DNA of 27,700 nt from an uncultured Candidatus Ruthturnera sp. (lineage in GTDB: Bacteria; Pseudomonadota; Gammaproteobacteria; PS1; Pseudothioglobaceae): positions 1-27,700 of the forward strand of contig CAZKWW010000001.1 in assembly GCA_964556635.1 (NCBI GenBank). The letters run 5' to 3'. Below, one piece after another: positions 1 through 20,585 of this stretch (positions are counted from its first letter, which is position 1; every line of letters starts with the position of its first letter). The translations under genes and the position numbers were made by a program. Under the pieces are notes generated by a model. That model was not told where the DNA came from. It worked only from the letters and a program-made list of their open reading frames with translations, and made no database searches.

Positions 1-51
1 TTAAGCATACCGCCAGCGTTCAATCTGAGCCAGGATCAAACTCTTCAGTTC
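1..51 (-). rRNA. rrs: 16S rRNA, 5' end (partial; gene continues beyond window start)
   Basis: Reverse complement reads GAACTGAAGAGTTTGATCCTGGCTCAGATTGAACGCTGGCGGTATGCTTAA, the conserved 16S 5' end including the 27F primer site. Confidence 0.97.
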
Positions 52-356: not shown

Positions 357-818
357 TCAAGGCTGCAATTTATCTTCAGGCACTGCTCTGTTAAGCCATT
401 CGTCAACTTCGTCAATGTCGACAATATCTCCTTGATTATTAAGCATTTCTAGGTCGTTATCATTCCAACCTTTGATGCCTAATTTGAGTGATCGAACATT
501 CTTAAAACCCATTTGTTGCATTGTTAATGCTGCCAATGCACTACGATTACCTGAACGACAAACTACCACAATATTTTGATCTCTTGCTTGTGCTAATGCT
601 GGAATGGTATCGTCATAGTTCCAAACGCAAGCACCTTCCAATACGCCTCTAGGCACATGGAGAGAGTTTTTAATATGCATCATCTTAAATTCATCTGACT
701 CTCTGATGTCTAATACAATTAGATTAGGGTCTTGCTCTATTTCTGTTTCTAAATCCCACGGCAATATTTCCCCCACTTCCCTTAGTGCTTTAACAACAAG
801 TCTTTGATATCCATCCAT
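357..818 (-). CDS. Single-domain rhodanese (sulfurtransferase)
   Basis: LIVLDIRESDEF, HIKNSLHVP and active-site loop VVVCRSGNRSALAALTMQQMGF..V.SL.LGIKGW. Confidence 0.9.
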   Translation of the reverse strand: MDGYQRLVVKALREVGEILPWDLETEIEQDPNLIVLDIRESDEFKMMHIKNSLHVPRGVLEGACVWNYDDTIPALAQARDQNIVVVCRSGNRSALAALTMQQMGFKNVRSLKLGIKGWNDNDLEMLNNQGDIVDIDEVDEWLNRAVPEDKLQP

Positions 819-824
819 ATTTTT

Positions 825-859
825 AATTGAAAATTGAAAGTTAAAAATTGATAATTATT
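825..859 (+). repeat. Array of five degenerate heptamers (consensus AATTGAN), downstream flank of four-helix-bundle gene
   Basis: AATTGAA AATTGAA AGTTAAA AATTGAT AATTATT read in 7-nt register on the + strand. Confidence 0.75.
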
Positions 860-1214
860 TGTTTATTTTTGAAGATTTTACTATGCTAACTAAAAGCTTT
901 ATAAGCTCCACACTATCATTGTGTATAGAATCAAAACTCTGCTCACTTATATAGTCACTATCTTTAAGTAGTTGAAGCCAGTATTCTGTTTCATTCGCTT
1001 CTTTTAAAGCAATACTCATTTTATTAATAAAATCTGCTTTTGATTGGGCGTGCTCACTCTCTTTAATGAGAGCCCCAATACTTGTGCCACTTCTTAAAAC
1101 CTGCTTAGAAAGCACATATTCCTTTTTCTCAGAAACAAGGTGTTTATATAATTTAACAACTCGTAACGCAAAAATATATGACTTATCCATCACAACGTTG
1201 CTCTTAATTGTCAA
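855..1214 (-). CDS. Four-helix-bundle protein (23S rRNA intervening-sequence protein-like family)
   Basis: KSYIFALRVVKLY...LSKQVLRSGTSIGALIKESEHAQSKADFINKMSIALKEANETEYWLQLL matches the family signature; TTG start preceded by GGAG at 9 nt. Confidence 0.88.
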   Translation of the reverse strand: MTIKSNVVMDKSYIFALRVVKLYKHLVSEKKEYVLSKQVLRSGTSIGALIKESEHAQSKADFINKMSIALKEANETEYWLQLLKDSDYISEQSFDSIHNDSVELIKLLVSIVKSSKINK

Positions 1215-1237
1215 CTATCAATTCTCCATTGTGAATT
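1203..1237 (-). repeat. Array of five degenerate heptamers (consensus AATTGAN), upstream flank of four-helix-bundle gene
   Basis: Minus strand AATTCAC AATGGAG AATTGAT AGTTGAC AATTAAG; opposite orientation to the 825-859 array. Confidence 0.7.
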
Positions 1238-1866
1238 TATCTGCAGTATCCTTTTTCAGTAATCATCACCGCCACTTCAACTCGAGAGCCAAGAGAAAGT
1301 TTTTTCAAAATTGATTTCACATGTAATTTAACCGTGCCATCAGAAATACCCAATTCTCTGGCAATCACTTTGTTGCTGTGGCCATGCGCTACCTGACAAG
1401 CCACTTCTTTTTCTCGATTGGTAAGTGAATCAAAGGTGGCTTCATTATCAGTCAATTCATTTTTAAGCACTTTGGCCAAGACATGTGTCATATCTTGCGC
1501 GACTACGATTGAACCTGTCACAGCTTCATTTAAAGCATTGACTAACTCATCAGGATCCATGTCTTTTAATAGATAGCCTTGCGCACCATGTTTAAGACAA
1601 TCACGCAGATCGTGCTCTTCTGTACTGGTGGTCAACATCACGATTGGAGTTTGCTCGCCTTGCTCCCTTAATGCTTTTAATACCTCGATGCCTGACATGG
1701 TTGGCATACGTAAATCTAATAAAATAATATCAATTAATAAATCGGGTATTTCTTCTAGACCTTGTTCAGGCGAAGCGGCCGCTTTAGCGTTAATTTTTCT
1801 TGATTCTAATAATGAGATTAACCCATTACGAAATAAAGCATGATCATCAATAATATAAATCTTCAC
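1237..1866 (-). CDS. NarL/FixJ-family response regulator (REC + LuxR HTH)
   Basis: IIDDH, phospho-acceptor LLDLRMP, GAQGYLLK, C-terminal LTNREKEV...SNKVIARELGISDGTVKLHVKSILKKL; GTGA overlap with the kinase stop. Confidence 0.93.
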   Translation of the reverse strand: MKIYIIDDHALFRNGLISLLESRKINAKAAASPEQGLEEIPDLLIDIILLDLRMPTMSGIEVLKALREQGEQTPIVMLTTSTEEHDLRDCLKHGAQGYLLKDMDPDELVNALNEAVTGSIVVAQDMTHVLAKVLKNELTDNEATFDSLTNREKEVACQVAHGHSNKVIARELGISDGTVKLHVKSILKKLSLGSRVEVAVMITEKGYCR

Positions 1867-3347
1867 GATAAATCCTTAAATGAAACAATCACGCGAGTAC
1901 CTTCATCAACTTCTGTCTCGACTTCGATATGGGCGCCAATTCTTCCAGCGCGTTCCTTCATAATGTTCATACCAATATTATTCCCCATTACCTCAGTGTC
2001 AAACTGGTCTTTTTTAAAGCCAACACCATCGTCTTCGATTAACAACTGACAATTTGGCTCAGCAGAAAGCAAGATTCTTACATTGCGTGCTTTGGCATGC
2101 TTACGAATATTAGACAACGCTTCTTGGGTGATGCGCATAATTTGCATCTCGGTTTCTGGTGCAAGGTTTAGCTTGCCTTCAACTTGTAAGTAAGTTGCAA
2201 CACCTTCTTCGGTTTCAAATCGATTGGCTAGGTTTTCTAACGAAACTTCAATGCCTTTAGGGTCGAGTGGCACACGGAAATTACACATCAATTCTCGTAA
2301 CTCTTGATTAGCCTGGGTGATATTAGACTGTAAGCTAGCCACTTTTTCGCCTGCATCAACTTTGTCACCTTGTTTAAGCATGTCGTCTAATACAGTTACT
2401 TGTAGCTTTAAGCTATAAATAGTTTGTGCCAAAGAATCGTGAATCTCTTGTGATAGAAACAAGCGCTCTTGTGAAAGTGCCATACGTTTGGTCTCTTCAT
2501 CAAGTCTGGCTTTATCTAGGGCGATGGCAATATTGTCTGCAATTGATTCTAATAGTGCGCGCTCATCAAAAGCCAGGGACGGCTCAGTATCAAAAAATAA
2601 GTTAAAAATGCCCAAAGTCTTTCCGTGGTATCTTAGTGGAATAAAAATTGTACCGACATTGTCTTTTGCTTCAGATTTGTCGCCCACGCACTTGGCACAA
2701 GTATGCACACTAAATTGCACATTCACGTCTTGTGCCATGGCTACTTCGCCACAAAAACAATCACTACTAAGGACATCAGCCACTTGCCCTTTTTTATCAA
2801 TCACACCGCGCTGTGCGACTAAATGCAACTCGCCTTCGTTACTCAAACGACGCGCAACACCAGAATCAGCACTGGTCATGTTCATAAAGATATCTAGAAA
2901 ATGTTCAAATAGCTCCTCAGTAGAGTGCATTGAATTAAGTTTCGATGAAACGCCGTAGAGTGTTTCTAATGACGCCGATTTTTTACTCAATCGCTGAATT
3001 TGCTTTTGCAAAATATCTTCCATGTCATCGTATAAATGTTGATTCTCTTCAATCAAATGATTAATTGCAGTTGCCACTGGTTGAAAGGTGGTTTTTTGTT
3101 CATCATTCAAACGTGCACTTTGGTCAACATTGTAATCGCCAACCCATTTTTGCAAATCGTTAAACGGCAATAAGAAATCTTTACGAATTGCAAGATACAA
3201 ACCCAAATAAACCAGCAAAATTAACAAGACTAGGGCGATATCAAGCCCATTAGGTGACTGATAAACCAAAACCACTTCGCTCACCAACAAAGGCGATAAA
3301 GCAATGGTTACCAATAGGTAAAGATAAAATTTTGTTTTAATGCTCAT
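1863..3347 (-). CDS. NarX-like sensor histidine kinase (2 TM, HAMP-like, GAF, HisKA_3, HATPase)
   Basis: Two N-terminal hydrophobic segments; ERLFLSQEIHDSLAQ H-box; QEALSNIRKHAKA N-box; IEDDGVGF and GMNIMKERA ATPase motifs; GAF with IPLRYHGKTLGIFNL. Confidence 0.9.
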   Translation of the reverse strand: MSIKTKFYLYLLVTIALSPLLVSEVVLVYQSPNGLDIALVLLILLVYLGLYLAIRKDFLLPFNDLQKWVGDYNVDQSARLNDEQKTTFQPVATAINHLIEENQHLYDDMEDILQKQIQRLSKKSASLETLYGVSSKLNSMHSTEELFEHFLDIFMNMTSADSGVARRLSNEGELHLVAQRGVIDKKGQVADVLSSDCFCGEVAMAQDVNVQFSVHTCAKCVGDKSEAKDNVGTIFIPLRYHGKTLGIFNLFFDTEPSLAFDERALLESIADNIAIALDKARLDEETKRMALSQERLFLSQEIHDSLAQTIYSLKLQVTVLDDMLKQGDKVDAGEKVASLQSNITQANQELRELMCNFRVPLDPKGIEVSLENLANRFETEEGVATYLQVEGKLNLAPETEMQIMRITQEALSNIRKHAKARNVRILLSAEPNCQLLIEDDGVGFKKDQFDTEVMGNNIGMNIMKERAGRIGAHIEVETEVDEGTRVIVSFKDLS

Positions 3348-18736: not shown

Positions 18737-19306
18737 TCAAACTTTGTTAAGGCTTGGTGTTGGCGTTGATACAAAAAAAGGCAATAATTTTAATACTGTC
18801 CAAATCACTACGATACCGCCGATCATATCGCCTACCAAGTAGTGTGATAAGAAATCTATTGGATTGATGCTAAAGACTTCACTCTTAGCATAAATTATAA
18901 ATCTTGATAGCGCATGAATAATAGCAGTGACAAAAATCAAGAACAAAACATGTCTGAAATTAATATTTTTTAACTCAGAAAAATCAACCATCTTAAGCTT
19001 TTGTATAAACCACATTGAAATTAGCGGTGCCAGCGCACCCATCAAAGCGCCCACAGCACCCCAAGCAAAATTACCACCCCATGAGCTAAATAAAACAACA
19101 CCACAAAAAACACAACTGGCCATCACGCCGGTCAACACTTGACGACCAAATAATAAAAACACCAAAATTTTTGCACCAATCGGTAAATACAAATACGTAC
19201 CAACTTCTACATCAAAATTTGAAAGATACTTCATGGCAACAGAAGCCAAAAAAATCGCCAAAAAGGCGATTAAGTTATTAATGATCAATGACTTGTGTTG
19301 TTCCAT
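18737..19306 (-). CDS. Standalone MASE1-like integral membrane sensor, paralogue B
   Basis: YLYLPIGAKILVFLLFG, LAP, IN..H..FL, YLVGDMIGGIV shared with paralogue A; no output domain. Confidence 0.7.
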   Translation of the reverse strand: MEQHKSLIINNLIAFLAIFLASVAMKYLSNFDVEVGTYLYLPIGAKILVFLLFGRQVLTGVMASCVFCGVVLFSSWGGNFAWGAVGALMGALAPLISMWFIQKLKMVDFSELKNINFRHVLFLIFVTAIIHALSRFIIYAKSEVFSINPIDFLSHYLVGDMIGGIVVIWTVLKLLPFFVSTPTPSLNKV

Positions 19307-19385: not shown

Positions 19386-19667
19386 CTACTTGTTATAAGT
19401 CAGGATCATTGCGCGTCTATCAGCGCTTGATTGTGTGGCGGTGATAATGTCGTTAGACAATAAAACACCGACGGCTCTTTTGATGGTAGATAACGAATAT
19501 TTAGCAAAATATTGGTTTTTAGTCACCGCTGTAATCGTTGCATCTTTTTGATGCATGATAAATTCTAACACGGCTTTTTCTACTTCTGAAAGTTGGTCAA
19601 AGCCTAACTCACGCTCGTAGTTGTCTAACGACTCTCTTAACTCAAATAATTTTTTTAATACGCTCAT
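19386..19667 (-). CDS. Small MarR-like winged-helix DNA-binding protein, paralogue A
   Basis: LSEVEKAVLEFI, recognition helix SLSTIKRAVGVLLS, wing DRRAMIL; SD GAGGGG. Confidence 0.8.
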   Translation of the reverse strand: MSVLKKLFELRESLDNYERELGFDQLSEVEKAVLEFIMHQKDATITAVTKNQYFAKYSLSTIKRAVGVLLSNDIITATQSSADRRAMILTYNK

Positions 19668-19694
19668 AAAAATCCCCTCTAGTTTTTATATTGA

Positions 19695-19982
19695 TTAGTT
19701 GTCTAAACAAAAAGACAAATACATCTTACGCTTGTCGTCTTCTGCTTGTTGTGACTTAATCGCACCAATTGATAATAACTTAGCTACCACACGATTAACG
19801 GTTGATAATGAAATTTTTGAAAAATACGGATGCTTCAAAATATCAGAAATGGTGGTTTGTTTTTGATTGCTCACAAATTCCAGAATACTGCGCTCAATCT
19901 CAGAATAGTCTTGAATACCAAGTGCTATTTCTTGCTCATGTAGTGCTTCTCTTAACTTAAATAGCCTTTCTAATGCTTCCAT
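19695..19982 (-). CDS. Small MarR-like winged-helix DNA-binding protein, paralogue B
   Basis: SLSTVNRVVAKLLS, wing DKRKMYL; from ATG at 19982 it aligns without gaps to paralogue A (40/93 identical by hand). TTG at 20003 is the alternative start. Confidence 0.8.
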   Translation of the reverse strand: MEALERLFKLREALHEQEIALGIQDYSEIERSILEFVSNQKQTTISDILKHPYFSKISLSTVNRVVAKLLSIGAIKSQQAEDDKRKMYLSFCLDN

Positions 19983-20071
19983 GTCTTTTAAAAATAGTTT
20001 CAACCTGACTAGATTATATAATAAATAATCATTAAGTGTATATCATAAAAATATATTTTTACTAAAGATAG

Positions 20072-20312: not shown

Positions 20313-20585
20313 ATGAACAAATCAGAATTAATTGATGCAATTGCATCAGAAGCAGGAATTTCTAAAGCAGATGCAGCTCGTGCATTAAACGCAACAACAG
20401 ATGCAATTACTGGCGCTATGGCTAAAGGTGATGGCGTACAACTAACAGGCTTTGGTAGCTTTGTTGTTAGAGATCGTGCAGCACGTACAGGCCGCAACCC
20501 ACAAACTGGTGCAACTATCCAGATTGCAGCAAGCAAAGTGGCAGCCTTTAAAGCAGGTAAAGCATTGAAAGAAGCGGTTAACTAA
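20313..20585 (+). CDS. hupB: Nucleoid-associated protein HU
   Basis: [44 protein letters not shown]. Confidence 0.95.

Follow-up and report, generated by a model that had tools for sequence, protein, structure and literature searches.

A PF05635 gene between inverted five-heptamer arms in a regulator-rhodanese operon: a probable intervening-sequence-type cassette of marine gammaproteobacteria

The DNA analysed here, a stretch of 27,700 nucleotides (nt) from an uncultured Candidatus Ruthturnera sp. (contig CAZKWW010000001.1), is called the window, and its numbering is used throughout. Between the genes for a response regulator and a rhodanese it carries a small gene of the PF05635/TIGR02436 family, which is bracketed by two arrays of five heptamers each in opposite orientation. 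This arrangement had been described in an earlier note, made from the letters alone, and is confirmed by our analysis. We consider it probable that gene and arrays, the latter referred to as arms, form an intervening-sequence-type cassette, i.e. a promoterless gene between inverted five-heptamer arms, which rides on a translationally coupled operon. As judged from the aligned junctions of relatives, the cassette entered a TAAA-containing spacer between the coupled regulator and rhodanese genes. The insertion dates to an ancestor shared by one sub-clade of this genus, whose members are small marine gammaproteobacteria; inheritance was vertical from then on, and two species still have an intact cassette, whereas it is in decay in three more.

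Inverted five-heptamer arms around a PF05635 gene

All genes around the cassette are located on the minus strand (Table 1). The 5' arm starts with the last A of the regulator's TAA, contains the Shine-Dalgarno sequence GGAG (1227-1224) at a distance of 9 nt ahead of the TTG start codon (1214-1212), and extends into the first four codons of the open reading frame (ORF). The 3' arm spans the stop codon TAA of the ORF (857-855) and terminates 6 nt short of the rhodanese ATG. These coordinates match the earlier description, according to which five AATTGAN-like 7-mers lie on each side in opposite orientation, the upstream array begins at the regulator stop and supplies both GGAG and the TTG start, and the downstream array covers the gene's own stop and ends 6 nt ahead of the rhodanese ATG. 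A search for inverted repeats recovered the arms as 825-849 and 1206-1230 (25 nt, 80% complementary), and the identity at lag 7 amounted to 21/28 and 18/28 for the two arms. Elsewhere in the 1.01-Mb genome only one other array reached a lag-7 identity of at least 20/28, and none of 2975 random segment pairs at equal spacing matched both the periodicity and the inverted score. That an ordinary small gene merely happens to lie in low-complexity DNA rich in A/T would be compatible with the A/T-rich region and the imperfect units (18-21/28 lag-7 matches). However, this explanation is refuted by the random controls; just two such arrays exist in 1 Mb, arm conservation is much stronger than that of neutral sites, and the same layout with quite different units was found in 91 of 104 homologous loci (see below), which leaves it a negligible probability.

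The G+C content of the ORF is 31.7%, compared with 39-43% in the neighbouring genes and 39.5% genome-wide, in line with the lower G+C content that had been noted from a hand-counted sample (39/120 for positions 901-1020, exact on recount). The family assignment made earlier was borne out by profile matches above the respective cut-offs, both to PF05635 (103.8 bits, cut-off 33.8, E 7e-30, profile positions 3-105 of 106) and to TIGR02436 (111.6 bits, cut-off 24, E 2e-32). A helix-2 motif GxxRxxxSxxxNxxE has been reported to be conserved in the PF05635 family (PMC3936711); in the cassette protein R41, S45 and E52 are present, the G position is occupied by Q38 and the N position by L49, a leucine that is shared by 59 of 80 aligned relatives. 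The closest solved structure is PDB 2RLD (E 6e-45, residues 3-118), an entry which holds five chains, and Xcc0516 is a homopentameric toroid according to Lin et al. 2006, as summarized in PMC4990558. From these two structures we infer that the cassette protein is probably a four-helix bundle forming a pentameric ring.

Promoter-like hits around the cassette remained at chance level (12 vs 10.9 expected). TTGACA-like hexamers do occur in the arms, but a promoter function of the arms was rejected, since the hits are at chance level and the units of other cassettes do not resemble sigma-70 boxes.

Table 1 Features of the cassette and its surroundings in the window.
Feature	Position	Strand	Remarks
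5' arm, five heptamers	1203..1237	-	AATTCAC AATGGAG AATTGAT AGTTGAC AATTAAG
Four-helix-bundle gene, 119 aa, TTG start	855..1214	-	PF05635, TIGR02436
3' arm, five heptamers	825..859	+	AATTGAA AATTGAA AGTTAAA AATTGAT AATTATT
5' strand of predicted long-range RNA stem	1206..1230	-	pairs with 825-849 in minimum free energy and centroid folds
TAAA, left edge, first copy of possible target duplication	1236..1239	-	includes regulator stop codon
TAAA, right edge, second copy of possible target duplication	822..825	-	
Host gene 1, sensor histidine kinase with GAF	1863..3347	-	Pfam HATPase_c, HisKA_3, GAF_2
Host gene 2, NarL-type response regulator	1237..1866	-	Pfam Response_reg + GerE; TAA stop 1239-1237 touches cassette
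Host gene 3, single-domain rhodanese	357..818	-	Pfam Rhodanese E 8e-20; ATG at 818-816
16S rRNA gene, first ~45 nt, runs off window	1..45	-	reads AGAGTTTGATCCTGGCTCAGATTGAACGCTGGCGG

Allele series at the regulator-rhodanese junction

In 21 of the 23 genomes of the host family in which the junction was read, the gap between regulator and rhodanese gene measures 1-35 nt, the junction often being an overlap such as TAatg, and about 50 metagenome contigs likewise show the two genes adjacent to each other. The cassette or its remnants are limited to five genomes belonging to one sub-clade of the genus, namely G000 (the genome of this window, 82% complete), G008, G009, G006 and G005. Intact cassettes are present in G000 and G009, whose proteins share 87% amino acid identity. 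G008 carries one extra A in an A-run, an apparent frameshift which could also be an assembly error, and G006 has lost the start codon and residues 1-55 through a 165-nt deletion between CAAT microhomologies. At the same place G005 harbors a 25-nt spacer, TAAATTAACAATTATCAATTAAATT, which matches the left arm at its outer end as well as portions of the right one (scores attained by about 0.5% and 0.8% of shuffled sequences, respectively). In a tree of the concatenated regulator and rhodanese, G005 is sister to G006 (support 98/97), G009, G000 and G008 form a 100/100 clade, and all five carriers fall into a 99/97 clade of eight that also includes three empty-site genomes. Since G005 is placed next to G006 and within the carrier clade, its spacer is best read as a two-ended deletion scar. 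Three of the alleles, namely the truncated one, the scar and the G009 type, were encountered again without any change in independent contigs from metagenomes (six in the case of the scar), from which we conclude that they represent lineage states rather than assembly artefacts. The series shows that the cassette is an insertion and that it is lost by deletions which leave arm ends behind.

The closest empty sites read TAAAGAC(T)atg and the filled sites TAAA/TTGAC...CAAT/TAAA/GACatg, i.e. up to 4 nt of the target, found once in the empty allele, are repeated at the cassette ends. Because the heptamer unit begins with AA and ends with TT, the true duplication may comprise 1-4 nt or be mere microhomology. 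The earlier note had proposed a non-autonomous cassette that lands between a stop and a start codon without breaking the operon, and had suggested to align this junction in search of empty sites. Both expectations held: empty alleles exist in close relatives, and the cassette is placed between the regulator stop and the rhodanese ATG with the operon left unbroken. No recombinase-type gene was detected, reverse transcriptase and transposase genes being absent from the window, as had been noted, and not found in the genome (82% complete) either.

Two further loci carry arrays resembling a single arm. In G018, which belongs to another genus (contig L025), the regulator-rhodanese junction contains a 35-nt spacer, TAATTAACAATTTTCAACTTTCAGTTATTAATTAA, that is identical to the right arm of the cassette at 30 of 35 positions, a score reached by none of 20,000 shuffles; a search of the G018 genome (98% complete) with this protein as query returned no four-helix-bundle gene. 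Either the cassette predates the genus and several clean losses followed, or the junction was hit twice. The second locus is the sole other strong lag-7 array of the G000 genome, outside the window (contig C38:156-191; AATTTGC AATTCTT AATCATT AATTATT AATCAGT), which fills the spacer from the upstream stop to the ATG of a gene tentatively read as ccmC-like. It is accompanied neither by a partner arm nor by a four-helix-bundle gene and may be a solo arm from a lost cassette.

Conservation and predicted pairing of the arms

The ratio of nonsynonymous to synonymous substitution rates (dN/dS) of the ORF is 0.07 between G000 and G009, and the half of the ORF that survives in G006 likewise shows a value of 0.07. 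The arms differ between genomes at 1-3 of 69 positions; A/T fourfold-degenerate sites of the flanking genes differ at 17% (G000 vs G009) and at 46-47% (either of them vs G006). Accordingly, arm conservation exceeds that of the fourfold sites with binomial P values of 2e-4 (G000-G009) as well as 4e-15 and 3e-17 (vs G006). One or two changes among four genomes are located in the 5' arm, and none at the 39 positions of the 3' arm, including G006 with its broken ORF. With such a low divergence, the arms are at least as constrained as the replacement sites of the protein, and the comparisons show that gene and arms are each under strong purifying selection. The synonymous divergence (dS) of the ORF between G000 and G009 is 1.17, roughly double the value of about 0.5 obtained for the regulator and rhodanese genes on either side, despite the near-identical arms, an estimate based on 66 synonymous sites only.

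Selection of this kind would also be expected if the cassette had been domesticated, with the arms uncoupling or tuning the expression of the rhodanese relative to that of the kinase and regulator, the protein acting as an RNA-binding regulator and host selection conserving the arms. The purifying selection on the protein, the invariance of the arms even next to the truncated ORF of G006, and the position of the 3' arm at -7 to -31 of the rhodanese start, where it would be occluded by a stem, fit this possibility. However, most relatives possess a spacer of 1-20 nt without cassette, three of the five carrier lineages broke or lost the gene, with G005 having deleted nearly everything, and the same architecture is present in unrelated operons of many phyla, which points to a property of the element and not of this operon. 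Domestication is therefore improbable in our view.

In a modeled transcript of 431 nt, both the minimum free energy and the centroid structure pair GAAUUGAUAGUUGACAAUU with the 3' arm; the fold has a z-score of -3.0, and none of 100 shuffles folded equally well. With a transcript of 511 nt the pair probabilities of the arms were 0.8-0.87. The predicted stem comprises 19-22 bp, the arm duplex reaches -16.3 kcal/mol (equalled by 4 of 1000 shuffles), and the stem would bury the UUG start codon, the last base of GGAG and the stretch of the rhodanese leader mentioned above. Thus, pairing between the arms is predicted for the operon mRNA, with the ORF closed into a loop, as had been suggested in the earlier note for the flanks of the gene.

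Based on these features we propose the following mechanism for the intervening-sequence-type cassette. Transcription of its gene would come from read-through of the host operon; ribosomes that complete the regulator would open the 5' arm, and translation would pass from the regulator via the cassette to the rhodanese. Untranslated RNA would fold into the stem, which could gate translation or be cut by RNase III, as is the case in the intervening sequences (IVS) of 23S ribosomal RNA (rRNA); the gene for RNase III is present in the genome. The five repeats per arm, in turn, might be the binding register of a pentameric ring protein.

Several points weigh against this interpretation. A single insertion event is seen in the genus and no identical copy exists at a second site, so that mobility of the cassette is a historical inference from one insertion, which was followed by vertical descent and decay. 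The arms are unchanged in G006 although its ORF is broken, which fits a protein-independent role or a recent break. The stem is A/U-rich and modest, given its free energy and three mismatches per 25 positions, and the near-invariance of every arm base exceeds the needs of a stem that tolerates G-U pairs. A plain stem accounts neither for the 7-nt period nor for the strong polarity of the arms (see below). Finally, a test for mirror order of the variant units was not significant for this window alone (p 0.45). Since the stem explains neither the 7-nt period, the preference for five units and the polarity nor the base-by-base conservation, these features point to a reader of the repeats. A candidate for such a reader is the pentameric ring itself, which would bind single-stranded RNA or DNA with one subunit per unit.

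The design in homologous loci and its relation to known systems

Homologues of the cassette gene are rare in the host family (9 of 122 genomes). The nearest ones, with 74-79% identity, were found in Bacteroidota, Chlorobiota, Desulfobacterales and Pseudohongiella, and the 80 best loci (one genome per species, 56-79% identical to the cassette protein) span Bacteroidota, Chlorobiota, Desulfobacterota, Cyanobacteriota, Bacillota, Campylobacterota, Acidobacteriota and others. Such close homologues across many phyla argue for horizontal transfer, and together with the low G+C content and the rarity in the family they indicate that the cassette gene is foreign in origin.

The flanks of 75 loci were sufficient for analysis, i.e. 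73 of the 80 loci, this window and a second cassette of G009; as an independent sample we used the 29 top PF05635 loci from 300 gammaproteobacterial genomes. In 70 of the 75 near-homologue loci the gene is flanked on either side by inverted arrays with three or more 7-nt units, and arrays on both sides in 21 of the 29 independent loci, both samples consisting of nearest relatives or best-scoring family members, in which the armed subfamily is over-represented. Heptamer flanks in other family members, which the earlier note had proposed to look for, are thus indeed common in these loci. The units of the independent sample are quite unlike those of this window (AGGGAGT, AGTGGCT, CTCGTCC, ATTCAGA, GTTACAA), but in 15 of 21 loci the units of the two arms agree at 6 or more of their 7 bases, compared with 8% of random locus pairs. 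The number of units per arm peaks at five (27 and 34 of 70 loci, vs 8-12 for four or six), a preference that is also seen in the independent sample. Reading inward, the arms contain more G than C in 61 loci and the reverse in 9 (16 vs 1 in the independent sample). Compared with block permutations, a mirror order of the variant units is more frequent than expected (p<0.05 in 15 of 68 loci; Wilcoxon 2e-5). The similarity of the arms rises with the identity of the proteins (Mantel r 0.27, p 0.0005), from which we conclude that gene and arms travel together. As judged roughly from ORFs, the genes on both sides run in the direction of the homologue in 45 of 68 loci and against it in 5; the spacers around the homologues have about the length of one arm, and in 20 of 35 loci the left arm begins at most 11 nt from the stop of the preceding gene.

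Two further ideas about the arms were rejected. A family-wide repeat motif is not apparent, since the logo of rotated units barely differs from the null and the independent units are quite different. The idea that the 7-nt period provides each reading frame of the 5' arm with a stop codon found no support either, as stop-bearing units (52 of 70 loci and 14 of 21) are not more frequent than in composition-matched shuffles.

In contrast to G000 with its one PF05635 copy, G009 possesses three copies with different arms. The two additional cassettes of G009 (L008:180-636 and L010:594-1130) are more divergent (about 60% identical) and lie among polysaccharide or nucleotide-sugar genes. The second cassette, which has its own five-unit arms, precedes an NAD-epimerase gene in a polysaccharide cluster; the third follows galU and is disrupted, its ORF showing a 13-residue insert and extra sequence upstream of the start. 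A location of these two copies inside 23S rRNA was ruled out by the lack of Rfam hits and by these neighbours. In addition, L006 (G021:C8) encodes at 1573-1854 a four-helix-bundle homologue without the N-terminal third, which shares 11 nt with the beginning of a long ORF resembling a type I restriction helicase subunit.

As the main alternative, the arms could act as transposon-like DNA ends. They would then be inverted binding-site arrays, as at the ends of Tn7, Mu and Ac, bound and joined by the pentamer. Cut-and-paste movement of the cassette, with duplication of a short A/T target, would be due to an enzyme of host or foreign origin acting in trans, and the RNA stem would be a by-product. 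In favour of this, empty sites contain a single TAAA and filled ones a TAAA at either end, the polarity of the arms is fixed and every arm base conserved, the unit is locus-specific yet common to both ends, gene and arms travel together across phyla, and the five units per end match a pentamer. However, searches of the G000 genome (82% complete) with the transposase profiles Y1, DDE_Tnp_1 and rve gave no match above the cut-off, and the cassette protein has no known catalytic domain. Moreover, the cassette is single-copy in G000 and the three copies of G009 differ in their arms, the duplication may be 1 nt or microhomology, and DNA ends do not need a co-orientation with host transcription, though a promoterless passenger gene would favour co-orientation too. 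We regard both the DNA ends and the cut-and-paste movement as rather unlikely, and the intervening-sequence-type cassette remains our preferred reading.

The closest described counterparts of this cassette are the ORF-bearing IVS of 23S rRNA, which are known from Coxiella burnetii and also from Leptospira, Brucella, Xanthomonas and Haemophilus (Warrier et al. 2016, PMC4990558). In Coxiella, the IVS with the S23p gene has a 28-bp stem, within which RNase III cuts, and three to four GACAGAT heptamers ahead of the S23p ORF (PMC4990558). As in 23S rRNA IVS generally, a gene of the same family is placed in the loop of a stem made from terminal inverted repeats. As in Coxiella, tandem heptamers directly precede the start codon, the Shine-Dalgarno sequence is located within the stem, a recombinase is lacking, the ORF decays readily while the RNA part is kept, and mobility has been proposed, but movement never seen. 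The differences concern the location, which here is an mRNA spacer between two protein genes and not helix 9, 25 or 45, the stem, which is A/U-rich and predicted to have 19-22 pairs instead of 28, and the ORF, which shows a dN/dS of 0.07, whereas the authors of the Coxiella study argue that theirs is not expressed. The nearest rRNA gene is a 16S rRNA gene 770 nt away, and the window contains no Rfam match; the cassette is not part of 23S rRNA. Apart from this location outside rRNA, it appears to be of the same build as a 23S rRNA IVS. In our literature search we found no description of the design of gene plus heptamer arms outside rRNA, the Coxiella IVS paper being the nearest.

Other systems share single aspects. 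bAvd (PDB 4DWL) is a pentameric barrel. The PF05635 family is related to Avd, the accessory protein of diversity-generating retroelements, which has a homologous fold and is a partner protein handling nucleic acids (PMC10053308); unlike in these retroelements, the cassette comes without reverse transcriptase and without template and variable repeats, and Avd genes have not been described with heptamer arms. That the cassette gene encodes an Avd-type accessory or another partner of a reverse transcriptase could draw on this relationship and on an RVT_1 fragment on another contig of the carrier G009 (G009:C119:908-1300), but RVT_1 searches of G000 (82% complete), G008 (97%), G006, G005 and G018 were without match. 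The window itself lacks a reverse transcriptase and a template/variable repeat pair, and its other genes are of the housekeeping type (see below). An Avd role at this locus is contradicted by these results, and we consider it very unlikely. G009 with its RVT_1 fragment is the one relative with three cassettes; searches of four more genomes with a cassette or its relics did not recover such a fragment.

BT_0352-type proteins (PDB 2RLD) are close relatives in sequence, with the five chains mentioned above; BT_0352 and Xcc0516 are structural-genomics entries without assigned function, for which no link to flanking repeats has been drawn. Family members of PF05635 also occur between cas genes (PMC3936711). 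Intergenic heptamer repeats as such have been reported as GGGAATC in Xanthomonas and GGGGAYT in Nostoc (PMC4692102), and in Geobacter metallireducens as paired 'global regulator sites' of five heptanucleotides (PMC2700814). To the extent that these two reports were available to us, they describe, as here, tandem 7-nt units, typically 4-5, often in two convergent intergenic arrays, but, unlike here, mention neither an enclosed gene nor a link to PF05635 and interpret the repeats as quadruplex-forming or regulator-binding sites. Miniature inverted-repeat transposable elements and repetitive extragenic palindromes (REP/REPIN) are similarly small, non-autonomous, intergenic and bounded by inverted repeats, with a possible short A/T target duplication; in contrast to them, the cassette is single-copy in its genome, carries a conserved gene and ends in tandem rather than unique inverted repeats, and neither a REP-associated tyrosine transposase (RAYT) nor a DDE transposase was found. 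TRAP is a ring oligomer whose subunit number matches short tandem single-stranded RNA repeats near a start codon and whose binding competes with an alternative RNA structure. The ring reader considered for the cassette would resemble TRAP in this logic only, i.e. ring subunits versus repeat number, the fold being unrelated.

As for the remainder of the window, the regulator scored 216 bits with the NCBIfam NarL model, below the cut-off of 250 of that model. A near-consensus promoter-like site, TTGACG-16-TATAAT, is located on the minus strand at 313-286, about 45 nt downstream of the rhodanese stop and in front of the 16S rRNA gene, and the order rhodanese to 16S rRNA recurs in metagenome contig L175 of a relative. 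The other genes of the window have housekeeping functions (gshA, a NUDIX/thiE fusion, yaaA, gltB, folA, maf, mfd, ispH, accD, trpA, hemE and a gene for a P-type ATPase), and a scan of the window for mobile-element genes, tRNAs and Rfam matches yielded none. Two tandem paralogous small ORFs of 93 and 102 aa, similar in sequence, lie on the minus strand at 19386-20003, upstream of a gene for a MASE1-like membrane protein (18737-19306) and near an HU-like gene (20313-20585).

The cassette brings together three puzzles, namely the function of S23p proteins, the origin of ORF-bearing IVS and the excess of 7-nt tandem repeats between genes. New here are the graded alleles at one site within one genus (empty, intact, frameshifted, 5'-deleted and two-ended scar), the measurement of arm conservation, the possible duplication of TAAA and, in another genus, a solo arm at the corresponding junction. 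As a more far-reaching idea, which we put forward tentatively and consider doubtful, a ring that reads five 7-nt single-stranded repeats could underlie a whole class of cassettes without recombinase, widespread but not yet described, in rRNA helices and in the spacers of coupled operons. This idea makes use of testable numbers, i.e. five units per arm versus a pentamer, the inward G>C polarity, and arms that abut the stop and start codons of the neighbours. If true, such cassettes would also explain the excess of intergenic heptamer repeats in bacteria, the ring and its repeats would define a new protein-nucleic-acid recognition module, and the cassettes a novel type of element, mobile or selfish, residing inside operons without polar damage.

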